The notes under the pieces were generated by a model. That model saw nothing but the letters and a program-made list of their open reading frames with translations, ran no database searches and was not told the DNA's origin. From IMG/VR virus record IMGVR_UViG_3300045988_123611: 64,000 nucleotides of DNA; one strand, written 5' to 3'. Made by a program: the position numbers and the translations under genes. Positions 1-10,454 of the stretch are shown here, in pieces (position 1 is the stretch's first letter; every line of letters starts with the position of its first letter). Source of the stretch: a virus.

Positions 1-68
1 TTTGGTACATCAATGTTTTAAAATTTGCTGTTAGCGTCTTTGTTATTCAAAAAGAAAGGAAAGATAAA

Positions 69-272
69 TTATGCGTTTGCGGGTTCCACATTCTTCGGTC
101 TGCGGAACTTTACATAACGCTCACCATCATATCGGGACATCCAAATGATTGTGCCATCCTTAAAATGGAAATCATAAGTAAAATCCTTATCCTGTTCATC
201 AACCTGATGGCAAAAGCCCTTACCGTACTTCTTAGAATAAACCTTATCGCCGGGCTTAAACTTAAACTTCAT
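69..272 (-). CDS. small hypothetical protein (67 aa)
   Basis: Complete ORF with an AAGGAG site 8 nt upstream of the ATG. No TAG. Near the tRNA array. Confidence 0.45.
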   Translation of the reverse strand: MKFKFKPGDKVYSKKYGKGFCHQVDEQDKDFTYDFHFKDGTIIWMSRYDGERYVKFRRPKNVEPANA

Positions 273-310
273 TTAGATATCTCCTTTTGGATTATTTTAA
301 TTTTACAAGA

Positions 311-384
311 CACAAATGAAATATTTGTTGGAATTGAACCAACTACAATTTGTTTAACAGACAAATACTCTACCAATGAGTTAA
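311..384 (-). tRNA. tRNA-Asn(GTT)-like, AT-rich, no encoded CCA
   Basis: Minus-strand cloverleaf. D arm ACTC/GAGT, anticodon loop CTGTTAA, T arm GTTGG-TTCAATT-CCAAC. Paralogous to the tRNA-Asn at 3523-3599. Confidence 0.4.
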
Positions 385-471
385 AATACTTTCAATAGAA
401 AATGATTGCTGTGTGTGTCTTTATTACTGTGATACCTCTTAAAAGAGGGCTTACGGCATTACGCCTAATAT

Positions 472-1262
472 TTATATGTTTTTCCATTCATCATCAGTGT
501 ATAAATTTATAATTTTTTTTGTATTAGGTAAATTATAAGAAATACACCATTTTCTAATGGAATTATCACTTACATGATATATATTCGCGATAGAAGTAAA
601 ACTTTTATTACGAATCAATTTTTTTAATTTATCACGAGAAGGTCTTTTAATTTTTCGATGTTCTTTAGCAGAACATTTCTAACATTTTTGACCTTTTCCG
701 CTCCACTCTCCACCACATATAGGACAAACTTTTTTTAAAAGTTTTTTCTCTTCTTCTGGTTTATTTTTATCAAAACGAGAATAATGTAAAGGATAATTTA
801 ATTTTTCATTAAACCAAGTTCTTCCAACATTTATATCTCTAATAGTATCTTTACTAACTTTATATTTTTTAGCTAATTCCGAATGATTAACTACACCTAA
901 CTTATCATTAATTAAAATATTTTGAATATCTTGGACTTCCTAATAATTTAATTTTTGATAAATTACGCGATAATCTCCACCTATTGTCTAATTATACTCT
1001 GGTTTATAATAATCAATCCAATAAGTTTCTCTACTATTTAGATTATCAATTTCACATTCTTCTAACACTTCAAATATAAAATTAGAAACACCATATTTTC
1101 TGAAACTTTGATATAAGGGATAATTATAGCTTTTACTCTTTTCATCTTGGGAGCTATATATATGATTTTCCCAACGTTCTGCTATATTTCTTGACTATCC
1201 AATATAACAATGATTATTTATTTTATTAGTAATTTTATAAATTCCTATCATATTACCATCTC
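472..1262 (-). CDS. GIY-YIG homing endonuclease with C-terminal zinc finger/HTH; four in-frame TAG codons
   Basis: Translation MIGIYKITNKINNHCYIG(tag)SRNIAERWENH gives the GIY-x9-YIG motif. The TAG falls exactly at the conserved Gln of YIGQS. CPICGG...C finger. AAGGAG RBS. It is an ORF only if TAG is sense. Confidence 0.75.
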
Positions 1263-1334
1263 CTTACACTATAATTAAAATTTTATTTAAGATAATTATA
1301 ATTTTTCGACCTCGAAAGTATTTAGGTGATGATA

Positions 1335-1407
1335 TGGTTGCGGTCGGGCGATTCGAACGCCGTTTTTGGCTTATGAGGCCAACGAGCTACCTTTGCTCCA
1401 CCACCGC
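1335..1407 (-). tRNA. tRNA-Met (CAT)
   Basis: Acceptor GCGGTGG, anticodon loop CTCATAA, T loop GGCGTTCGAATCGCC, 3' CCA encoded. Confidence 0.75.
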
Positions 1408-1409
1408 AA

Positions 1410-1485
1410 TGGTCGGTCAAATTAGAATCGAACTAATATCCCTTGTCTTATGAGAACAATGCTCTACCAGTTAAGCTATTGACCG
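1410..1485 (-). tRNA. tRNA with CAT anticodon (second Met/initiator or Ile2-lysidine type)
   Basis: Acceptor CGGTCAA, anticodon loop CTCATAA, T loop TTAGTTCGATTCTAA, CCA encoded. Confidence 0.7.
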
Positions 1486-1642
1486 AAAATAGGATAGATA
1501 TAATATTCATGACTATTATATCTATTGGACTTTCTAACCTATCGTCCCAAAATTCTTAATAGACCTCATCAAATGGCCAACTTTTGTAGAGGCTTTTGTG
1601 CGACCACCTGCGCACTTACATAGACATAAGAATAATGCCAAC

Positions 1643-1722
1643 GTATGGCGACCCCGACGGGTGCCGACCCCGCTATCTCCAGCGTGACAGGCTGGCGGCT
1701 CTGCTGACTGCCCCCAGGGCCA
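1643..1722 (-). ncRNA. GC-rich tRNA-like element, unresolved. Possible anticodon arm CCAGC-CTGTCAC-GCTGG (GTC, Asp) but non-canonical T arm.
   Basis: A 65% GC island inside the tRNA array with a good anticodon-arm hairpin. I could not fold a canonical acceptor/T arm by eye. Confidence 0.25.
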
Positions 1723-1724
1723 TA

Positions 1725-1801
1725 TGGTACTCCCAGCCGGATTCGAACCGGCGACTCCAACGTGAAAGGCTGGTGACTTAAGTCCGCTTGTCGATGGGAG
1801 C
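1725..1801 (-). tRNA. tRNA-Glu (TTC)
   Basis: Acceptor GCTCCCA/TGGGAGT, anticodon stem CCAGC/GTTGG, loop CTTTCAC, T loop GGTTCGAATCC, CCA. Confidence 0.7.
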
Positions 1802-1868
1802 ATATTAAATAGACTATAAAGCCGTTTATTAGGGCAAATAATATTTCAGTTCCTTACTAAAAGCGATA

Positions 1869-1946
1869 AAAGTAAGGTGGTGGCGCGAAGGGGATTCGAA
1901 CCCAACTATCGCGAGAGTGAGAATCTCGCATCCTAAACCGTTAGAC
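1869..1946 (-). tRNA. tRNA with anticodon CTC (Glu, GAG)
   Basis: T loop GGTTCGAATCC. Anticodon arm GCGAGA-TTCTCAC-TCTCGC with U33 and A37. CCA encoded. Acceptor has one mismatch. Confidence 0.55.
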
Positions 1947-1959
1947 GACCGCGTCATAT

Positions 1960-2216
1960 TTAAGCACATCTATCATAATCTTGATTTTTGTGCTTTTGTT
2001 TTCGCTTAAACGAGCCTTTACCTTTCTTCGCAGGAACTTTAAATCCTCTGCGCCGAAACAATTGAAGATACTCATTAAGCTCTTCCTTATTCTTTTTCAT
2101 ATAACTTTTATTCACGGTATTCATCCTCATCTTCATAAAGGGAAAGATCCTGATAAGCAGCATATTCATCACTCTGAATCTCGCAAGCATAGCTTTCATA
2201 GTAATCATTATACATA
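1960..2216 (-). CDS. small hypothetical protein(s). A 35-aa acidic ORF is favoured by RBS spacing, with an overlapping 82-aa alternative frame.
   Basis: Class-A early promoter and AAGAAAGGAAG RBS upstream. The frame is ambiguous. Confidence 0.3.
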
Positions 2217-2224
2217 ATTTAAAT

Positions 2225-2280
2225 CTTCCTTTCTTAACTTTCTATAAATATTATAACTTATTTTTTATAAAATGTCAAAA
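2225..2280 (-). promoter_or_regulatory. Class-A early promoter: TTGACA-N17-TATAAT plus conserved ATATAGAAAGTTAAGAAAGGA leader
   Basis: The reverse complement reads CTTTTGACATTTTATAAAAAATAAGTTATAATATTTATAGAAAGTTAAGAAAGGAA. The same module recurs upstream of about 20 minus-strand genes. Confidence 0.6.
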
Positions 2281-2394
2281 GATTAAAAGACCAACCAAAA
2301 GCGATATTTGTTAACGATGGTCGCCACTCCACCGCCGTCAATATTCACAAACACTTACCATTTTCACACTAACCTACTAATTAAAGGAGGTGAC

Positions 2395-2482
2395 TGGTGC
2401 TTCGAGAGAGACTTGAACTCTCACCATCCGTTCGGATAATCGGGTTTGAGCCGATCGCGTCTGCCAATTCCGCCATCAAAGC
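2395..2482 (-). tRNA. tRNA-Leu (CAA), class II with long variable arm
   Basis: 88 nt. Anticodon arm ATCGG-CTCAAAC-CCGAT, variable arm ATCCGAACGGATGG, T loop GAGAGTTCAAGTCTCTC, CCA. Confidence 0.7.
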
Positions 2483-2496
2483 ATAACTAAGAGGAT

Positions 2497-2625
2497 TTTT
2501 AAGAAGAATCCTCAAAACTTCTTTCTAATCATCTAATTGGATTTTTAAGAAGAACCCTCAAAACTTCTTTCTAATCTAACGGAAGTTTTAAGAAGATCTT
2601 CCAACTTCTTTCTAATCTTAATCGC
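2497..2625. repeat. Three tandem copies of a ~42-bp unit (TTTTAAGAAGAATCCTCAAAACTTCTTTCTAATC...), each with an internal AAGAAG/CTTCTT inverted repeat
   Basis: Direct inspection. Followed by the GC hairpin GGGCGGCCGTCCCTTCGCGGCG. Confidence 0.7.
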
Positions 2626-3029
2626 ACTTTAGGGCGGCCGTCCCTTCGCGGCGTCACGATTTGCATAATTTACTGTATTACCATTTTATTTTCCGAAAAA
2701 GGCTACAAACCAAAATGGGAGTTATTTAAGAATAACTTCTAGACTACGCTAACTGCTCAAATTTTCTCTTCTTAGTGGGAAAAACTTTCTTAGCGCTGAA
2801 ACCAAAATCACTATTAGCATTTTGTATATATTATCTTATTGTATATAAGTTTTATTAATATACCTTATCTATTATATCATTTAGTATATTGTATTAATGT
2901 TTAATTAATAAGATAATATTTCTGGCTGTTTTTATCACCAATCATATAATTGGTTATATTGGGCAATGCTCCCAAACTTGCGGTTTACTTAACCGCCGTG
3001 CTTACTCTTTACACCATATAACCATATAA

Positions 3030-3108
3030 TGGTGGACCTCGTGAGAATCGAACTCACCTGATTTTCTGTGTGCAAGACAGACGACCACGCCATGCAGTCC
3101 CGAAGCCC
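3030..3108 (-). tRNA. tRNA-Ala (TGC), tentative
   Basis: T arm GTGAG-TTCGATT-CTCAC. Anticodon arm TCTGT-CTTGCAC-ACAGA. Acceptor GGGCTTC/GAGGTCC has two G-U pairs. CCA encoded. Confidence 0.45.
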
Positions 3109-3195
3109 GAAATGCGACTTATTTATGTATAGATGGAGTCGCCAACCACCTGCGTTCAAAGTCCGCAAGCCTTCAACGCATTCCCAGGGAGGGAT

Positions 3196-3272
3196 TGGTG
3201 CTGGAGAAAGGACTCGAACCTTCAGATTAATGATCCTAAATCATTCGTCTATGCCAATTCGACTACACCAGC
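3196..3272 (-). tRNA. class-I tRNA with anticodon TAG (decodes CUA, Leu-type). G37 present.
   Basis: Acceptor GCTGGTG/CTCCAGC. Anticodon arm AATGA-TTTAGGA-TCATT. T loop GGTTCGAGTCC. CCA. Note it is not the CTA suppressor. Confidence 0.55.
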
Positions 3273-3284
3273 AAATAAAGAGTT

Positions 3285-3380
3285 TTATAACCCACATCGC
3301 GAAGATTCGAACTTCGTCAACCGTTAGGACTCGAACCAACTTTTACTCTTTTGGATTCCCAGAACCCATAGCCTTGATTA
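3285..3380 (-). ncRNA. tRNA-like element with two T-loop-like motifs (GTTCGAGTC and CGAAG-TTCGAAT-CTTCG). Possible long-arm or degenerate tRNA.
   Basis: Motifs seen by eye. A full cloverleaf was not resolved. Confidence 0.25.
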
Positions 3381-3522
3381 ATGTGAGTATAGCCACTACT
3401 TCACAATAAGTTTTACTTCGCTTTCTTATATTTAGTCGGGCGTTTTCCGCAAACCACATACTCTTTCGATCGGTGGTAGTTTAAACTTACAAAATCCGTG
3501 TTAACGCCCCAATGGCGGGAGA

Positions 3523-3599
3523 GATAGGATTCGAACCTATGACATCTTGTTTAACAGACAAGCGCTCTAACCAACTGAGCTACACTCCCATAAAAGAAG
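3523..3599 (-). tRNA. tRNA-Asn (GTT)
   Basis: Acceptor GGGAGTG, D arm GCTCAGTTGGTTAGAGC, anticodon arm CTTGT-CTGTTAA-ACAAG, T loop GGTTCGAATCC, CCA. Confidence 0.75.
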
Positions 3600-3699
3600 G
3601 ACTTTTTAAAATCCTTACTTTATATATTTATTATATTATATTTTTTTTAAAAAATCAACTTTTCTCTTTTACCCAAATTTTTTTATTTTCTTTTTTCTT

Positions 3700-3750
3700 T
3701 CTTCATTTTATATAAATATTATATAATATTTTTTATAAAATGTCAATAAG
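3700..3750 (-). promoter_or_regulatory. Class-A promoter facing the tRNA-Asn and tRNA array
   Basis: RC reads TTGACATTTTATAAAAAATATTATATAAT. Same consensus as 2225-2280. Confidence 0.5.
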
Positions 3751-3925
3751 GTCTTTGAATTGGCATTAAATCATCTTCTGAAAGAAGCCACTTTTCACCA
3801 TGCTCATCAAGGACTTCAATCTGATAATTTAATACTCGAATGACAGTACATTTAAGATACTGTCTACGATAACAACGACCACGATAAGGGACAAAACAAT
3901 AAGAATTACCAACTTCAATATTCAT
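3743..3925 (-). CDS. small hypothetical protein (60 aa)
   Basis: GAAAGGAGAAAATAAATAATG RBS. Class-A promoter at 3935-3990. Confidence 0.5.
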   Translation of the reverse strand: MNIEVGNSYCFVPYRGRCYRRQYLKCTVIRVLNYQIEVLDEHGEKWLLSEDDLMPIQRPY

Positions 3926-4081
3926 TATTTATTTTCTCCTTTCTCAACTTTCTATATATATTATATTATATATTTTTAATAAAATCAAAAAAGTTCTTTT
4001 TGTTTAAGTAGATTTAACAAATTTACCACAATTTTAGTCGAAATCAGGAACACCGCGTGAAGGTATTGTGGATAGTTCCCG

Positions 4082-4153
4082 CAGGCGCCGTAGGATTCGA
4101 ACCCACACCTCAAGATTTTGGAGATCCGAATGCGACCGTTACACCAGACGCCT
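4082..4153 (-). tRNA. tRNA-Trp (CCA), no encoded 3' CCA
   Basis: Acceptor AGGCGTC/GGCGCCT. Anticodon loop CTCCAAA with U33 and A37. T loop GGGTTCGAATCC. Confidence 0.5.
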
Positions 4154-4164
4154 ATAAAACAAGA

Positions 4165-4250
4165 CCTTAACTTTGTCCGGAAAATGGATTTGAACCATTA
4201 ACTTAATCTTAAATGATTATGACCTAACCTTTAGTCTATTCTGGAAGTTA
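4165..4250 (-). ncRNA. tRNA-like gene with atypical anticodon arm. Perfect stem TAATC/GATTA but a 6-nt loop ATTTAA.
   Basis: T arm AATGG-TTCAAAT-CCATT, D arm GACT...GGTC, acceptor TCCAGAA/TTCCGGA. Loop geometry is non-canonical. Confidence 0.3.
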
Positions 4251-4324
4251 TTTTTGCTGTAAAGGTCTTTCTTTATTTTATAAATATATTATATATTATT
4301 TTTTTAAAAATGTCAAAAAATTTT

Positions 4325-5641
4325 TTAATTCGTTATTAGTTTCCATGTAGTGTTATTTATTTTTACATATACTCTACTGTCAGGATGAGCCATATAATAA
4401 GTTAAGTATACTGAACCGGTAGTAGAAGAATTGCTATAAGGCTTAACATATATATAATAAGTAGTTCCAGCCGTAACTTTATAACAAATACCAAAATTAG
4501 CTCCAGTACCGCCATATTTTTTTGCATAATCATCATCGCTAGCTAAAATATTAGAAGAAGGCTATCCACTATCATTAAGAGAAGTAATACTTGATGTTAA
4601 ATAACCATAAGTGTCTATTGAAGAATTAGAATAAACAATAAAGTCCCCTGAAATAGTAGGAGTAAAAGAAAAATATCGACAAGTGCTTGGAGATAAAGTC
4701 CAAGAAGAGGTGTTCTATTTGTTATAAGTGGGAGCAGATATTGACACAGTAGAATAAGCCCAATTTGCTATAGACTAAATAGTAATTCTTATATAGCCAT
4801 TTCCACCATGACCTGTTTCAGATGACCCTGTTGGAGAAATAAATGAAGAATTACCTGCGATAGTTGATGCAGAAGTTAAATAATAGTTACTATTTAACAA
4901 ACAACCAGAAGGATAATTAGAAGCAGTGGATGAGGTATATACATAACCAGAACCTCCGCCACCATGATATTTTGTTCCACCCTGCATATTAGAGAGTGAA
5001 ACAATTCCACCATACCAGCCGCCTCCTCCAGCTCCATTTATATTATAAGAAGAACTGGATGAATATCCATTTCCTCCTACTCCAAAGCTATTTCCTGAAG
5101 TTTGTGTACTTAGACCTGGACTATTAGACCCTGCTACACTACTGGTGCCCCCACCGGCATCTCCGCTTTCTGTATTAGATCCCCAAGAGGTAGCTCCGCC
5201 TCCGCCGGCGACAATTACACGAGCGTAGAGAGAGTTTGATCCAATACGAATATCAGAAGCTCCTCCACCACCACCGCTTCGAGACATAGATCCGGAGACT
5301 CCTCCAGTACCGCCTCCATTAAATCCTCCTGTATAATCATTAGCAGAAGAAGAAATACAACCTCCTTTTCCACCAGTATATAAATATACCGTTTGAGAGG
5401 AAGAAAGAGTTAAAATTCCCGTTGAATATCCACCTTTTCCTCCTATAGCTCCCGAAGAAGCGTCAAAACTAGAGTTACTATTAGCACCATTTCCTCCCTA
5501 AGCCCCCCAACATTCTAATTTATAAGTACCTTTTGGAAGGGCAATATTTTTATAAGTTCCACTATAAGGACAATTTAATATATCTCCTGTTTTTAAAGAA
5601 GAAGAAGAAGGAATTGAAGAAGTTAAGTCGTAAGTTGCCAT
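4325..5641 (-). CDS. Gly-rich tail-fibre-like protein, copy 2. Four in-frame TAG codons.
   Basis: GGAGG RBS + ATG at 5641. Motifs KLECWGA(tag)GGNG, GGGGGASDIRIGSNSLYARVIVAGGGG and NYPSGCLLNSNYYLT are shared with copy 1. It is an ORF only if TAG is sense. Confidence 0.6.
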
Positions 5642-7035
5642 GTAGTTATTCCTCCTTTCCAAGTCGTATTATCTATTTTTGTGTATATCGCTTTAATGGG
5701 AGCATAAGTATTAGAATTGATTTTTACATTTAATGGTGATAATACAGTAATGCGAATATATCCCTACGTCCCTCCAGGATTAGTTCTATTATATCCCATT
5801 GTAGTAGAAGCATTTGTTAAATAATAGTTACTATTTAACAAACAACCAGAAGGATAATTAGAAGCGGTTGATGAAGTATATACATACCCAGAACCACCAC
5901 CATTATAAGTTCTATAATCAGCAGAGCTATCACTAACATTAGTAGAAGCACCACCACCATACCAGCCGCCACCACCACCACCGGGGCCATAATTATAATT
6001 AGTAGATCCACTAGCATCAGCACCTTGACCAAAAGATCCATTTGTTCCTGCTTTAGTCTATGTAGCCTTATATTCTTCAACCGCAGAGTTACCCGTCAAT
6101 CCGCCACCCTATTTAATAGAAGAATTACTTTCTCCCGCGCCACCACCACCACCACCGGCAACAATTACACGGGCATAAAGAGAGTCTTGACCTACGCGGA
6201 TATCGGAAGCTCCTCCGCCTCCTCCACCTGATGTGTAAGCAGAAGTATACCATCTAATCCTAGAGCTACCTCCTCCATTAAATCCACCATTAACTATCTT
6301 ACCTTTTTCACTATCACTTGAATAACTACCATGCCCCCCGGTGTATAAATAAATAGTGGTAGGAACTGGTAAAGAAAGAATTCCTATAGAATATCCTCCT
6401 GTTCCACCCCAATAACTATTTTTTGAACTCGCAGGAGTATAAGTAGTATTACTTTCCTATTTCTAAATCTAAAAATAAACTTCTTCATTATCCACGGAAT
6501 TTGAGCTATCTTTAGTATAAGTCATTACGATAGTAGATCCTGATGATAAAGAATAAGTGCCAGTAGTAGTAAGAGAACTTGATCCAGAAACCGCATTTAA
6601 AACTGTATTTCCTCCAACAGTTAAAGTGACTTTATCATAGCTTGCTTCAGTTTTATAATAATATGAAAATTTATAAGTCCCCCCAGAAGTACAAGTTAAT
6701 GTAGTTGTAGCAGTACTTGAATCTATTCCTCCGTTAGTAGCTATCCAGTCATTTCCGTCTTGACGAAAATAATAATTTGAATCATTAACAGTAAAATAAC
6801 TGGTCGCATTATGAGTTCCTATATATATCCATGAAGTTGTTGTTGATGAAGTTAAAGAACCAGAATAACCAATTCCGCCATAGCCACCCCAACATTCTAA
6901 TTGATAATTTCCCGCTGGAAGTTTTACTGGATTTACCGCTCCTGAATAGCTACTATTAATAATATCTCCTGGAATAAATTTAATAGAAGAATAATCTGTT
7001 ATAGAAGTTCCAGAAGGATTATAAGTATTTGGCAT
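5623..7035 (-). CDS. Gly-rich tail-fibre-like protein, copy 1. At least six in-frame TAG codons, three of them within 13 nt at 6457-6471.
   Basis: AGGAGG RBS + ATG at 7035. Motifs LPAGNYQLECWGGYGG and GGGGGASDIRVGQDSLYARVIVAGGGG. Overlaps copy 2 by 19 nt. Confidence 0.6.
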
Positions 7036-7051
7036 TTAAATTCCTCCTCTA

Positions 7052-7606
7052 TTAAGTGAAATACTAAATCCAAATATCTCCAACATTTCCGTCTGAAGCG
7101 GTGGGAGCAGAAGTGGATACTTTAATATTTCTTAAAATATTATTGTTTAAATAAGAAGAATTAGTAGTGACAGATAAATTAGATCCCATAGAACCATTAG
7201 TAATCTAAGCTAAGTCTAATCCTGGATTAATGGGTAAAATATAATCACCACTGGATGACCCTAATTGTATCTATCCGATAAATGCTTCATCTTTATATAG
7301 AAAATTTGCTTCTACAGCAGTATTCTAATGCCAACATCCTAATCCATTATTAGAATGTTCTTTTTTAATATAATATTGAGTTAATTTTAATGCTCCTAAA
7401 TTATTTATATTTATTGTTATATTAGTAATTGGATTTGTCGCAACATTATTCATATTTGGAATAAGGCCAATAATCATTCCGTCTTTATATTCTTTAATAG
7501 ATTTTGCGGTTCCTATGTAAGTTAATCCATCAGTAGAAGTAATTGGAATAATTTCTAAACTACCACTTCCACTACGCATATGTTCTATTGCTTTTGGAAT
7601 TGCCAT
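7052..7606 (-). CDS. hypothetical late/structural protein with three in-frame TAG
   Basis: GGAGG RBS + ATG at 7606. ORF continues through TAG at 7325 to TAA at 7052. Confidence 0.5.
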
Positions 7607-7690
7607 TTAAATGACCTCCTTATAAATTTTATTATTTCTATAAAATTTAAAAATTTATAGGTAAGTCATTAATTTAATTTGGTTAAATAA

Positions 7691-7724
7691 AAAAAGAGTA
7701 ATGTCAAATGACATTACTCTTTAG
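7691..7724. terminator. Bidirectional rho-independent terminator
   Basis: AGAGTAATGTCA-AA-TGACATTACTCT hairpin flanked by A/T runs. Confidence 0.6.
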
Positions 7725-7725
7725 A

Positions 7726-8031
7726 TTAACTTAATCCCAATCTTGCCTTTAAATCGGCAATATTTTTCTTTTCATCTATAGTGATTTCAATTGGGGTTTC
7801 TCCGCCTGCAGTTGCCCCATCTTCAAAATTCAAAACATTTGAATCCGCGGTTGCACCTGCTTCACCGATCGGAGTCTTTGGGCACGTCATACTAATAGCA
7901 ATCTGAATTCGCTCACCATTTTCATTAGCCCAAAGATAATACTTTTTATCTCGCTCGCCGATCCAATCAGCGCCAAATACTTCCGCCATTTTCTTAGCGA
8001 TTTGTTCCTTAGCTACTGCACCTTTAGCCAT
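7726..8031 (-). CDS. hypothetical protein (101 aa)
   Basis: Complete ORF, no TAG. First gene of the non-recoded early block. Confidence 0.55.
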   Translation of the reverse strand: MAKGAVAKEQIAKKMAEVFGADWIGERDKKYYLWANENGERIQIAISMTCPKTPIGEAGATADSNVLNFEDGATAGGETPIEITIDEKKNIADLKARLGLS

Positions 8032-8043
8032 ATCTAATTCTCC

Positions 8044-9477
8044 TTAACTAAAATTATGTATAAAGTCTTTTAAAGACCTAAAATTATTAACTTTTTCTTC
8101 ACCAGCATCTCTAAAACACCAAGGACATAAATACATATCAGTCCCTTTATGATAGTGAATATCTTCTGTATAATATAAATTATTACAACATTCGCATCGT
8201 TTACAATAAGTATCCGCGCAACTATCGCAAACTAATTCATTCTCATCGCCCACAGAATTTGCTTCATCAAGAATTATACGAGAACCGCAACAAGCGCAAT
8301 AACCATAGTTATCGTCTTCGTTTACTCCATAACTGAATTCACAATCTCCGCATCGCATATATTCTCCACTTTCGATTATAGTTTTACCGCATTGTAAGCA
8401 GGGAACATCACCACCAATAGACCAATGAGGAAGATCAGTCTCTAATGGATAATAATACAATTTTAAACTGTAAATAGGTAAATAACAAGAGGAATAAAGC
8501 AAATCATTATATTGAAGAGTATGCTCGCCAATATCTCCAACAATATCACCAATAGGATATAAACGAGATAAAATAGGAATCCATGTTTCAGATAATCCAA
8601 TAATCTCTTCATTCCCAAAATGAGAACTACCCATCCTATTAGAAACAGTGTTAATACCTCCGTCTACCCAATCACGCAACTGAAAAGTCTTATCAAAAGT
8701 ATTGATAATATCTTTAATTTTAATTAAAGCATTAGTTGTCATAAAAGGATATTGGCGACCAGCCATCAAACCGCGTCGTTTATCTTCCATATAAAGAAGC
8801 ATACGCCATTTCTTAGAATTCCAAAGAACGTCTTCGGGGAAATGCGGAAGTTTCTGATTCTCCGCTCCGCGCAAATAGCAAATAAAAGTGCTTCTATCTA
8901 CCATGTAAGATAAATTTCCTGCTCTGTATTCACCATCAAGCGCATGACAAGAACGCCAATTATAAGTATTTTCACTCACGCTCAGAAAATCCAAAGGATG
9001 AACTGAGAAACATAATGTTCCCTCAATCTTGTCCTCTTGGATAATACGACTTGCGTAATTTTGAATATCTTCCAAAGAGCGCGGATTCTCTTCAAAATAC
9101 TTAAAAGCCTTAACTAATTTCATTCCTCTTGGAATCTTTTTATCCTTATAAAAATAAGTATCTATAACTGTATTATTAAAGAATCCTTCTTTATTTACTG
9201 AAATAAAATCTTTTAAGTCTTCATTATTATAAGTATAATTAATTGTTTCAAGAAACTCCTCAAGACGATGCTCTTTAGTTTTATCATCTAAAGAAAAAGA
9301 TACCTTTTCCGGCCATTCATAAATTAAATGACCGTGAAAAAATTTAATTAAGTCTTTTTTGGCTTCGAGGAATCTTTCGAATAGTTCTTCTGTTTTTGGA
9401 TTACTGATTCCTTGGGAGTAACTGATGACTTTGTTGAACTGTTCTCTAATGCTTTCGATGTCGAAGTCATATGACAT
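8044..9477 (-). CDS. large Cys-rich (multi-CxxC zinc-ribbon) protein, paralog of 11985-13589
   Basis: Shared core FSVHPLDFLSVSEN...WRSCHALDGEYRAGNLSYM versus LSVHPLDYITMSDN...WDSCMRWQNGGGEYRQGTVEM. C-terminal CxxC clusters. GGAGG RBS before MSYDF. Confidence 0.6.
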   Translation of the reverse strand: MSYDFDIESIREQFNKVISYSQGISNPKTEELFERFLEAKKDLIKFFHGHLIYEWPEKVSFSLDDKTKEHRLEEFLETINYTYNNEDLKDFISVNKEGFFNNTVIDTYFYKDKKIPRGMKLVKAFKYFEENPRSLEDIQNYASRIIQEDKIEGTLCFSVHPLDFLSVSENTYNWRSCHALDGEYRAGNLSYMVDRSTFICYLRGAENQKLPHFPEDVLWNSKKWRMLLYMEDKRRGLMAGRQYPFMTTNALIKIKDIINTFDKTFQLRDWVDGGINTVSNRMGSSHFGNEEIIGLSETWIPILSRLYPIGDIVGDIGEHTLQYNDLLYSSCYLPIYSLKLYYYPLETDLPHWSIGGDVPCLQCGKTIIESGEYMRCGDCEFSYGVNEDDNYGYCACCGSRIILDEANSVGDENELVCDSCADTYCKRCECCNNLYYTEDIHYHKGTDMYLCPWCFRDAGEEKVNNFRSLKDFIHNFS

Positions 9478-10454
9478 TTGACTAATCCTCCAATACAATC
9501 TTTACAATACTCGCTGTGTGGGTTCGCAGGGTCAATTTCAAATGCCTCTTCACACTCCGCACACCATTCAACATTACTGGGAATACAATCAGGACAATAA
9601 AAACATGTATGTCCATCTAATCCCTTTACTGGAAATGTTTCATACTCACTAAATAGCTGACCGCATCCTCTACAATGAACGTAGAATCCATCGCCATCAG
9701 TTGGAAAATTCTTACAAATATTATCGAACCAAATATTATGATAATTACGATAATACTCAAAATTAGGGATATCTTTCTCTTGGAGCATGCGGATTACCTT
9801 ATTAATCGTATCAAAAAGAGCGCCCGCATTTAATGTTTCAACATGACTATGTTCATTCTTGTATCCAACTGAAAGATTTACACCACAAATTTTCCATTCA
9901 GGACATAAAACACTAATATCACTAAACGTGCCAAAATCCTCTACAAATCCAAAAGATTCAATGTAATCAATGAATTTAGGATTGTAAAGGTCGTAAAATA
10001 CACAATCATTTGTGCCTTGTCTATCCAACTGAATAATATATTTCAAATCAGGAAATGGACACTCAAAATATTGTAATACTAATGCTTCGGCGCCTAATCC
10101 ACCAATTTCTTCATCAGTGGTAAAAATAATAGAAGGGCGCAAAAATGTATTCCTCAAAATATGAAGAATCGCATATACTCCTGCTCTATCATCTGCACCA
10201 AGACCTTCAGGTGACCAAAGCACATTTTTTCTTGTGTCATAATATAAATCTTTGACCGGTTTCTCAAACACGGTATCAAGATGAGCCACTAAGGCAATCG
10301 GAATATCGCCAACCGCACAAACATACTCTTTAGTAATAACTACTTCAGAATATTTAGATTTCAATACATCGGCAACATATTCCCTTAACTCATCTTGCGT
10401 CGAGCGAACCAGATATTCAAATAACCAAAGTTCATTAGTTTTAAAACCTCTCAC
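9348..10454 (-). CDS. M42/M20-family metallopeptidase-like domain fused to C-terminal zinc ribbons
   Basis: Motifs AHLDTVF, GADDRAGV, FTTDEEIGGLGA and IQLD match the co-catalytic metal ligands of M42/M28 peptidases. The C-terminus is CxxC-rich. The 3' end overlaps the next gene by about 130 nt. Confidence 0.55.
   Translation of the reverse strand: MRGFKTNELWLFEYLVRSTQDELREYVADVLKSKYSEVVITKEYVCAVGDIPIALVAHLDTVFEKPVKDLYYDTRKNVLWSPEGLGADDRAGVYAILHILRNTFLRPSIIFTTDEEIGGLGAEALVLQYFECPFPDLKYIIQLDRQGTNDCVFYDLYNPKFIDYIESFGFVEDFGTFSDISVLCPEWKICGVNLSVGYKNEHSHVETLNAGALFDTINKVIRMLQEKDIPNFEYYRNYHNIWFDNICKNFPTDGDGFYVHCRGCGQLFSEYETFPVKGLDGHTCFYCPDCIPSNVEWCAECEEAFEIDPANPHSEYCKDCIGGLVKCHMTSTSKALENSSTKSSVTPKESVIQKQKNYSKDSSKPKKT

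Follow-up and report, generated by a model that had tools for sequence, protein, structure and literature searches.

How is the amber codon read in a phage whose genes carry it in frame, when the stretch of its genome at hand encodes no transfer RNA (tRNA) with a CUA anticodon? The question is raised by IMG/VR virus record IMGVR_UViG_3300045988_123611, of which 64,000 nucleotides (nt; hereafter the window) were analyzed. At the left end of the window, between positions 300 and 4260, stands an array of tRNA genes, several of them with unusual arms, in which a first-pass annotation had seen no obvious CTA suppressor; the TAG decoder, it was suggested there, may be one of three odd elements or a gene outside the window. 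Comparison with overlapping and related contigs indicates that the decoder is a tRNA(CUA) with an ordinary anticodon, encoded in the same array but outside the window. The owner of the array would be a ~194-kb gut phage of the Firmicutes type in whose late genes TAG stands for glutamine (code 15), and positions 300–4260 would form the promoter-proximal part (the first third) of an array of ~11.7 kb and ~24 genes, together with small open reading frames (ORFs) and homing endonucleases. Taken as a whole, this explanation (a truncated array, a CUA suppressor outside the window, TAG as glutamine, theta ribozymes, and the assignments of the odd elements given below) is in our judgment highly probable. 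The chief remaining interest lies in the deviant tRNAs, above all in a gene with a 6-nt anticodon loop and a series of loop alleles.

The amber suppressor of the array

tRNA genes were called with ARAGORN at default, lowered-threshold, and intron settings, and with the Rfam tRNA model (RF00005, gathering cut-off 29 bits). Across the 64 kb of the window, ARAGORN at default settings reports 12 tRNA genes; all share the minus strand and they span positions 318–4245 (Table 1). The Rfam model passes 10 of the 12, the exceptions being 2950–3024 and 3030–3108. The tRNAs folded by hand in the first-pass annotation, two for Met, Glu(TTC), Glu(CTC), Leu(CAA), Ala, two for Asn, and Trp, are all among the ARAGORN calls; the tRNA-like gene at 2950–3024 and a candidate theta ribozyme at 4080–4026 had been overlooked. 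The lack of a CTA suppressor holds for the whole window: neither ARAGORN at any of the three settings nor Rfam with E up to 1–10 gives a tRNA with anticodon CTA, and the low-threshold and intron runs bring out no mis-folded one. A scan of the window for hairpins of the form stem/NT-CTA-RN/stem gives only chance matches with 4 of 5 pairs. A 7-nt loop with CUA, U33, and a purine at position 37, set in a cloverleaf that scores as a tRNA, is not found anywhere in 1–64000, but it is found on a contig that overlaps the window.

The contig, here called L087 (part of a scaffold of 194,080 base pairs, bp), was reached among other long metagenomic contigs with the 67-amino acid (aa) protein at window positions 283–80 as query, and it is 100% identical to window 1–10272. 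On L087 the array extends 7.4 kb beyond the left edge of the window, with the order Phe-GAA, Ser-GCT, Leu-AAG, His-GTG, Ile-TAT, Arg-TCT (with C33), Ile-GAT, Pro-TGG-like, Val-TAC, tRNA(CUA), and Tyr-GTA. The tRNA(CUA) occupies L087 16947–17036; its start lies 6,675 nt to the left of window position 1, and it is on the same strand as the array. It is called by ARAGORN, scores 57.8 bits with Rfam, has the loop CUCUAAA, and does not encode CCA. Residue U1 is unpaired and residue 73 is a G, both features associated with tRNA-Gln, as in the acceptor of the Escherichia coli tRNA; the gene resembles tRNA-Gln in these positions and its product would be charged with glutamine. A CTA tRNA occurs in that slot in every relative whose sequence reaches it (L087–L094 and L099), either in the 90-nt form, as in L087, or in an unrelated 73-nt form.

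Because L087 and all the relatives that reach the slot carry a CTA tRNA there, the missing suppressor is an effect of the window edge, and the TAG decoder is, as far as sequence can tell, this ordinary-anticodon tRNA(CUA) of the same array. That TAG is recoded in a phage seemingly without a decoder is then no paradox, and the absence of a suppressor from any windowed scan can be such an edge effect. Of the two suggestions made in the first-pass annotation, the gene outside the window is the one that stands, since none of the three odd elements has CUA. The other survives in part for the 6-nt-loop gene, whose anticodon is UUA in one numbering of the loop and would be CUA in the allele CUCUAA of one relative (L148).

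A phage devoid of its own suppressor, in which a host tRNA or an odd element of the window other than 4175–4245 serves to read TAG, would also agree with a window that holds no CTA tRNA, and suppressor genes are indeed missing from some recoded phages (PMC10607447). However, at that slot L087 and every relative that extends to it have a CTA tRNA, accompanied by a ribozyme of its own, and no CUA is present in the elements 1646–1721, 2950–3024, and 3285–3380. This alternative is very improbable.

Several points weigh against the explanation preferred here, a glutamine-inserting tRNA(CUA) in the array. The suppressor is located on an identical overlapping contig, outside the window itself, and ~74 kb of the ~194-kb genome are covered; further tRNAs may exist elsewhere. 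The glutamine identity is based on codon substitutions and on the acceptor features assumed from E. coli rather than on an isotype model, and the variable region of the 90-nt suppressor, with 21 nt, is unusual for a tRNA-Gln. The other tRNAs of the array would supply codons heavily used by an AT-rich phage (AAT, GAA, GAT, ATT, and TAT), but this idea of codon supply is loose: the array includes tRNAs for rare codons (CUA, 2.4 per 1000), and no canonical tRNA-Lys is present in it though AAA amounts to 47.7 per 1000.

As a side observation, the variable region of the 90-nt form can fold into a hairpin UUCC-CUUUGAA-GGAG, the 7-nt loop of which resembles the anticodon loop of tRNA-Gln(UUG).

TAG as a glutamine codon

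With TAG taken as a stop, ORFs of 100 aa or more give a coverage of 66%; with TAG as sense, the figure is 84%. In-frame TAGs concentrate in the structural and packaging genes, where their number ranges from 3 to 11 (six in the terminase gene, 11 in the portal gene), and a central gene block is entirely without TAG. The long ORFs of tail-fiber-like glycine-rich proteins are restored in the same way. In relatives with an 87%–88% identical terminase, five of the six terminase TAG positions are CAA or CAG, and the closest relatives switch in this gene between TAG and CAG or CAA. Because the terminase TAG positions are CAA or CAG in relatives, TAG is assigned to glutamine, as in code 15. Neither TGA nor TAA occurs in frame within real genes (ORFs of the window, the terminase of relatives, and contigs with a UCA allele of the 6-nt-loop gene), and the earlier view that TGA recoding is not indicated is borne out. 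Recoding of TAA or TGA was considered and rejected; the in-frame ORF pairs split by TAA are simply adjacent genes.

Inside the array, a GIY-YIG homing-endonuclease ORF (472..1251, minus strand) would depend on the suppressor, because it contains four in-frame TAG codons; its counterpart on L087 (9022–9801) matches PF01541. Directly upstream of the array, window 4325–7035 (minus strand) encodes a pair of glycine-rich paralogs, 438 and 470 aa long, with four and six TAG codons, respectively. They match Pfam ALK_LTK_GRD on L087 and are highly variable among relatives.

The terminase is 44%–47% identical to those of Enterococcus phages H1 and VRE9_4, Geobacillus virus E3, and phAss-1 (45% for phAss-1). 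The last of these, a distant relative (proposed Phassvirus), has been described as a gut phage with code 15; it has 36 tRNAs, and its Sup-CTA genes number three (PMC10607447). Like phAss-1, the present phage is a large phage of the Firmicutes type, with TAG as glutamine in structural and packaging genes and a long one-strand tRNA array that contains small ORFs, a Sup-CTA, and short "Leu" tRNAs with UAG or CAG anticodons. The two differ, apart from the divergence of the terminase, in genome size (~194 kb vs. 136 kb) and in the number of suppressors (at least one at the slot examined here vs. three). The present array also has no canonical Lys or Gln tRNAs, it contains altered D- and T-loops, and its 6-nt-loop tRNA was not seen in phAss-1. 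On the whole, a tRNA array, a CUA suppressor, and candidate theta ribozymes come together in this code-15 phage as they do in others described from the gut.

Candidate theta ribozymes next to tRNAs without encoded CCA

Theta ribozymes, minimal ribozymes similar to that of hepatitis delta virus (HDV), lie directly against the 3′ ends of phage tRNAs that lack CCA; Kienbeck et al. (2024; PMC10879173) report one next to 85% of the suppressor tRNAs of such phages. A scan with our own descriptor of nested helices gives many loose matches in AT-rich sequence, among which two stand out: one follows the tRNA-Trp of the window and the other the suppressor of L087 (Table 1). In both, the cleavage site falls within 1–5 nt of the 3′ end of a CCA-less tRNA (at +1 in each case). 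The window candidate parses as GGGAAC UAU CCACAAU ACC UUCACGC GGU GUUCCU GA UUUCGA CUAA(A) AUUGUGG and the L087 candidate as GGUGCU AA AAACAAA ACC UCCUCGC GGU AGCACU GG GUAAUG CUAA UUUGUUU. A published example is GAAUAGC AA AUGAGAA ACC U CC ACGU GGU GCUAUUC GG GUAACG CUAA UUCUCAU (PMC10879173), and both candidates fall into its domains (layout ACC U CC NNNN GGU ... GG GUAAYG CUAA). Both have the nested helices P1, P2, P3, and P1.1, with G1 at the predicted cleavage site, and in both J4/2 begins with a C.

The candidates thus share with the theta ribozymes of PMC10879173 a cleavage G at most 1 nt from the 3′ end of a CCA-less phage tRNA, the helix layout, the ACC...GGU motif, and CUAA in J4/2, and one of the two copies follows a code-15 amber suppressor. 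Unlike the published ones, the copy in the window follows a tRNA-Trp and has UC/GA in place of CC/GG in P1.1 (the pairing is kept). In the accessible part of the supplementary tables of that paper (PMC10879173), the exact sequences of the two candidates are not found.

The ribozyme after the suppressor would cut out the CCA-less 3′ end of the suppressor, and tRNA-Trp (4153–4081) with its ribozyme (4080–4026) would constitute a second tRNA–ribozyme unit of this kind, inside the window. By analogy, both candidates would be expected to self-cleave. One ribozyme is common to the two forms of the suppressor, and the one after tRNA-Trp is missing in relatives whose tRNA-Trp encodes CCA. The 73-nt Sup-CTA substitutes for the 90-nt form in about half of the relatives, and the ribozyme downstream is unchanged there.

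The tRNA with a 6-nt anticodon loop

The gene at 4175–4245 is the first of its transcription unit. As had been noticed in the first-pass annotation, it combines an anticodon stem UAAUC/GAUUA with a 6-nt loop, AUUUAA; the minimum-free-energy fold is a cloverleaf. The acceptor contains an A4.C69 mismatch, the discriminator is C, and CCA is not encoded. In the Infernal alignment, nucleotide 38 is deleted and U33 and A37 are kept. A counterpart stands first in the array in all the ~35 related contigs reached, and four alleles of the loop occur: AUUUAA (the window and most contigs), CUUUAA, CUUCAA (five contigs), and CUCUAA (L148 only). The alleles of the window and of L082 differ at two positions of the loop, and they share the remaining 65 nt of the gene and 60 nt of flanking sequence without a difference. 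Because the differences are confined to the loop amid an identical gene and identical flanks, the loop would be under selection, which suggests that the anticodon loop itself matters. Among all variants, 3 of 42 paired positions vary as against 9 of 29 unpaired positions (p = 0.011), with zero two-sided pair changes; the D-loop GG and one D-stem pair are lost in L101, L142, and L144.

Searches of viral, metagenome, and genome collections with gapped patterns that admit loops of 4–9 nt gave only 6-nt loops, and no homolog with a 7-nt loop. Matches on L095, L097, and L098 were rejected as chance matches. Wider sampling with the neighboring 67-aa protein yielded only four clusters, all on short contigs, and a search of the literature for 6-nt anticodon loops in phages turned up nothing relevant. 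As a separate observation, an 8-nt inverted repeat flanks the gene, with AAGACCUU upstream (4246–4275) and AAGGUCUU downstream (4153–4174), and its halves could pair across the tRNA.

The gene could be a decaying pseudogene, or a tRNA-shaped processing signal heading the Trp transcript, in which the sequence of the loop is irrelevant. The short loop, the A4.C69 mismatch, the unusual discriminator, and the missing CCA would be in keeping with decay, as would the losses in the D-arm of three variants and the lack of two-sided pair changes, and debris is demonstrably present in the array at 3285–3380. Yet the gene is kept in first place in all those ~35 contigs, behind a promoter with 12 of 12 consensus positions, and it scores well over the Rfam cut-off. 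Its stems are spared with respect to the loops (see the p value above), and its substitutions cluster in the anticodon loop, between identical flanks. A pseudogene or processing signal is a tentative reading only.

If the loop itself matters, its meaning depends on the numbering. With U33 and A37 kept, the alleles give the anticodons UUA, UCA, and CUA, that is, all three stop anticodons. With A37 and A38 kept and U33 dropped, they give UUU, UUC, and UCU, for Lys, Glu, and Arg.

With the first numbering, N32-U33-(34–36)-A37, the window gene would be a stop-codon reader, whose anticodon UUA reads UAA and, by wobble, UAG, as in the classical ochre suppressors; it would be a second, weak TAG decoder transcribed from a host-type promoter, with alleles that retarget it to UGA (UCA) or UAG (CUA). 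This numbering is the one of the best Infernal alignment. UCA and CUA are the only stop anticodons among the nine single-step neighbors of UUA (naive chance 1/36), and the confinement of the window/L082 differences to two loop positions argues for selection on the loop. The first pair, U1–A72, is like that of tRNA-Gln. As a weak association, the adjacent tRNA-Trp(CCA) is missing in three of five contigs with the UCA allele vs. 3 of 24 others (p = 0.046, with contigs that are phylogenetically nonindependent), and an anticodon UCA can also read UGG. Against such a reader, all the late genes examined end in TAA in carriers of the UUA and UCA alleles; an efficient ochre reader is disfavored because it would extend every structural protein. 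The real genes of the window and of the UCA-allele contigs are free of in-frame TAA and TGA codons, the phage has a canonical CUA suppressor in any case, the discriminator is C or U and not G, and the A4.C69 mismatch speaks against it as well. To our knowledge, there is no evidence for decoding by a 6-membered anticodon loop. A dependence of stop usage on the loop allele was looked for and rejected: the terminase of a CUUCAA-allele contig keeps its TAGs and has no TGA, and the late stops are TAA with both alleles. The gene is unlikely to be a stop-codon reader.

The classical suppressors derived from tRNA-Gln, supE (amber, CUA) and supB (ochre, UUA), and the tRNA-Trp(UCA) of Mycoplasma and mitochondria all have 7-nt loops. 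In the numbering with U33, the 6-nt-loop alleles carry these same anticodons, with U33 before and A37 after them; unlike the classical ones, they miss nucleotide 38, and the body of the tRNA is not recognizably that of tRNA-Gln or tRNA-Trp. Less likely still is the more specific proposal that 4175–4245 represents an undescribed kind of stop-reading tRNA, lacking nucleotide 38, with alleles that target the three stops on one body. If it were so, code-15 phages would gain a tunable low-level read-through, or a competition with release factors, beside the amber suppressor.

With the second numbering, N32-(34–36)-A37-A38, the gene would be a Lys-type tRNA (UUU) without U33, with alleles for Glu (UUC) and Arg (UCU). 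It would supply the abundant AAA codon, or resist or soak up host anticodon nucleases that cut beside the wobble base. AAA is among the most used codons of the phage and a canonical tRNA-Lys occurs in no array examined. Each allele corresponds to a standard loop minus one U (xUUUUAA, CUUUCAx, or CUUCUAA). Position 33 is also deviant in 2950–3024 (A33) and in the Arg(UCU) gene at L087 14317–14394 (C33), and the exchange of nonhomologous tRNAs of the same anticodon at every slot fits an arms race. Changes in the anticodon loops of phage tRNAs have been proposed to allow escape from host tRNases (van den Berg et al. 2023; PMC10264068). As in the phage tRNAs of that report, noncanonical loops (A33, C33, 6 nt) occur here in phage-encoded tRNAs and the slots are polymorphic, but the changes there are substitutions in 7-nt loops, with no mention of changes in loop length. 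Against a Lys-type tRNA, the loss of U33 is the loss of the most conserved nucleotide of the loop, one tRNA body would have to serve the lysyl-, glutamyl-, and arginyl-tRNA synthetases, and contigs with the UUC allele (e.g., L090 and L092) already have a canonical Glu(UUC). Infernal favors the other numbering. The Lys-type reading is doubtful.

Ranked together, a function that depends on the loop, as decoder or as decoy, comes before a pseudogene, and the two numberings are about equal; none of the three readings taken singly is more than tentative. The gene at 4175–4245 is not the main TAG decoder, and it might decode some codon. If it decodes, the range of possible shapes of anticodon loops becomes wider; as a decoy, it would amount to a new anti-defense device.

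Noncanonical tRNAs with 7-nt loops and tRNA debris

All the tRNAs of the window have a 7-nt anticodon loop with U33, except 4175–4245 (6 nt) and 2950–3024 (A33). The first-pass annotation had placed its three odd elements correctly (1646–1721, 3285–3380 with two T-arm-like hairpins, and 4175–4245) and had called them, too uniformly, noncanonical tRNA-like genes, with the proviso that they might score as noise. Of the three, 1646–1721 is a constrained tRNA-Asp, 4175–4245 is a tRNA both real and anomalous, and 3285–3380, which scores as nothing, is debris.

In the element 1646–1721, the anticodon loop CUGUCAC is standard for Asp, residue 73 is a G, and CCA is encoded. The usual elbow motifs are missing: the D-loop, AGUCAGCAGA, is without GG and the T-loop is GUCGGCA. 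A variant present in L083, L084, and L145 shows seven differences, all in stems, with three pairs altered on both sides and one G.U pair changed to G–C. The structure should work, because all the differences fall in stems and three pairs change on both sides. This is strong evidence for a working, structurally constrained, though noncanonical, tRNA-Asp. In sister genomes, the slot holds a canonical 78-nt tRNA-Asp(GTC), and in L093 a chimera of both.

In the gene 2950–3024, the loop is UAAGUAA, with A33 and anticodon AGU, and the T-loop (AGCAUUG) and D-loop are without the usual elbow motifs. Over nine variants, 99.5% of the cells are paired, and two T-stem pairs change on both sides. The loop is UAAAUAA in L088 and L101, and the anticodon arm has a 2-nt deletion in L096 and L150. 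The codons that match the anticodons of these alleles, ACT and ATT, are those by which the phage mainly encodes Thr and Ile. By the pattern of substitutions, this is a structurally constrained tRNA-like gene with A33. For the neighboring tRNA-Ala at 3030–3108, relatives have a canonical Ala alternative in the same slot.

The class-I tRNA with anticodon UAG (3196–3272) had been described as a reader of the CUA codon and not of TAG, and this interpretation holds. It is a canonical class-I cloverleaf with a 5-nt variable loop, G37, A73, and an encoded CCA. The D-arm, GUCGAAUUGGCAUAGAC, is of the Leu type and the 3′ end is ACCA; D-stem pair 11–24 covaries from U–A to C–G between alleles. A73, G37 after an NAG anticodon, the D-arm G-AAUUGG-A-AGAC, and the slot are shared with the bacterial class-II tRNA-Leu, from which it differs by the 5-nt variable loop in place of the long arm; the long variable arm of class II is lacking in 3196–3272. 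In four relatives (L083–L085 and L102), the same slot holds a normal 85-nt class-II Leu(UAG), and phAss-1 has 77–78-nt tRNAs with UAG and CAG, a Leu-like D-arm, G37, and A73. The gene is most likely a tRNA of the Leu type without the long variable arm, predicted to read CUA/CUN and unrelated to TAG. Charging with leucine is presumed from the behavior of the leucyl-tRNA synthetase of E. coli.

ARAGORN at its normal threshold makes no call in the region 3285–3380, and Rfam with E up to 10 has no hit there. The conservation of the region in relatives is no better than that of the flanks, and an intact paralog is found in no locus examined. It was rejected as a tRNA, as no fold yields a cloverleaf and no intact paralog exists among these loci; from its sequence it is classed as recombination debris. 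To trace where the odd tRNAs come from, the phages in GenBank were searched with BLAST; the matches, to tRNA-Glu, -Lys, and -Thr, were all insignificant, and pairwise comparison with 110 tRNAs of the arrays gave at most 62%–72% identity.

Polymorphism of the slots

Across relatives, nearly every slot of the array has two or more nonhomologous versions with the same anticodon. The Trp slot has four forms or is empty, Leu-UAG is of class I or class II, and at least two forms exist for each of Ala, Asp, Glu-TTC, and Sup-CTA. ORFs for GIY-YIG, HNH, and PD-(D/E)XK endonucleases are scattered among the tRNA genes of the array, and those of the HNH and PD-(D/E)XK types occur at other positions in relatives. 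A reasonable reading is that cassettes would be exchanged by the action of the endonucleases, under selection by host factors that target tRNAs. The alternation of canonical and deviant forms in the slots (altered elbows of D- and T-loops, A33 or C33, a short Leu-type tRNA, and a Trp tRNA with either CCA or a ribozyme) fits selection by such factors.

Among the forms of tRNA-Trp(CCA), one of 85 nt with a long variable region and an encoded CCA is present in L083–L085, L102, L145, and L152; L096 and L154 have another Trp-CCA-like gene, not called by ARAGORN. The Arg(UCU) gene of L087 has the loop CCUCUAA; relatives have CUUCUAA.

Other features of the array

The three perfect promoters of the sigma-70 type (Table 1) share the strand of the tRNA genes, which would be expressed from them. 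CCA is not encoded in four or five of the tRNAs of the array. A search of the window for transfer-messenger RNA found none.

Table 1. Coordinates of the features in the tRNA array (positions in the window, unless L087 is given)
Feature	Position	Strand	Remarks
tRNA-Asn(GTT)	318..390	-	ARAGORN; Rfam 63.9 bits; 27% GC; CCA not encoded
tRNA-Met(CAT), two genes	1335–1408, 1410–1485	-	ARAGORN; Rfam 57.4 and 64.1 bits
Noncanonical tRNA-Asp(GUC)	1646..1721	-	ARAGORN at lowered threshold only; Rfam 27.5 bits vs. 29
tRNA-Glu(TTC)	1725–1801	-	ARAGORN; Rfam 54.2 bits
tRNA-Glu(CTC)	1878–1955	-	ARAGORN; Rfam 35.5 bits
Perfect promoter TTGACA-17-TATAAT	2250..2278	-	12/12 consensus match
Class-II tRNA-Leu(CAA)	2395..2482	-	ARAGORN; Rfam 51.6 bits
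46-nt tandem repeat, 2.9 copies	2493..2618	.	Tandem Repeats Finder score 162, 84% matches
tRNA-like gene, "Thr"-AGT	2950..3024	-	ARAGORN call; no Rfam hit
tRNA-Ala(TGC), G3.U70, atypical D-arm	3030..3108	-	ARAGORN; Rfam 23-bit tRNA-Sec clan match only
Class-I tRNA, anticodon UAG, 77 nt	3196..3272	-	Rfam 59.8 bits
tRNA debris, two orphan T-arm-like hairpins	3285..3380	-	UUGG-UUCGAGU-CCUAA, CGAAG-UUCGAAU-CUUCG
tRNA-Asn(GTT), canonical	3513..3589	-	ARAGORN; Rfam 74.7 bits
Perfect promoter TTGACA-17-TATAAT	3718..3746	-	12/12 consensus match
Candidate minimal HDV-like theta ribozyme	4026..4080	-	G1 1 nt past 3′ end of tRNA-Trp
tRNA-Trp(CCA), CCA end not encoded	4081..4153	-	ARAGORN; Rfam 42.3 bits
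tRNA with 6-nt anticodon loop AUUUAA	4175..4245	-	ARAGORN "???", 2-nt anticodon call; Rfam 42.7 bits
Perfect promoter TTGACA-17-TATAAT	4288..4316	-	12/12 consensus match; -10 ends 42 nt upstream of 6-nt-loop tRNA
Candidate theta ribozyme	L087 17037–17089		G1 1 nt past suppressor (ends 17036); descriptor scan

Beyond the left edge of the window, a Pro(UGG)-like gene at L087 15670–15742 has the T-loop GGCGGGA; it scores 45.9 bits with Rfam and gives no ARAGORN call. At L087 10849–10899, ~0.6 kb to the left of the window and between tRNA-Phe and a small ORF, there is a weak match to the type-P1 twister ribozyme (39 bits vs. a gathering cut-off of 67, E = 9e-6 in that search). A near-complete copy of the phage (L154, CAMELE010000001.1, 163,874 bp) is present inside a metagenome-assembled genome labeled "uncultured Mollicutes bacterium"; the label may be a binning artefact or a hint of the host. 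Within the window, the tandem repeat at 2493–2618 lies just 5′ of tRNA-Leu(CAA) on the transcribed strand, and each of its units could form alternative hairpins.

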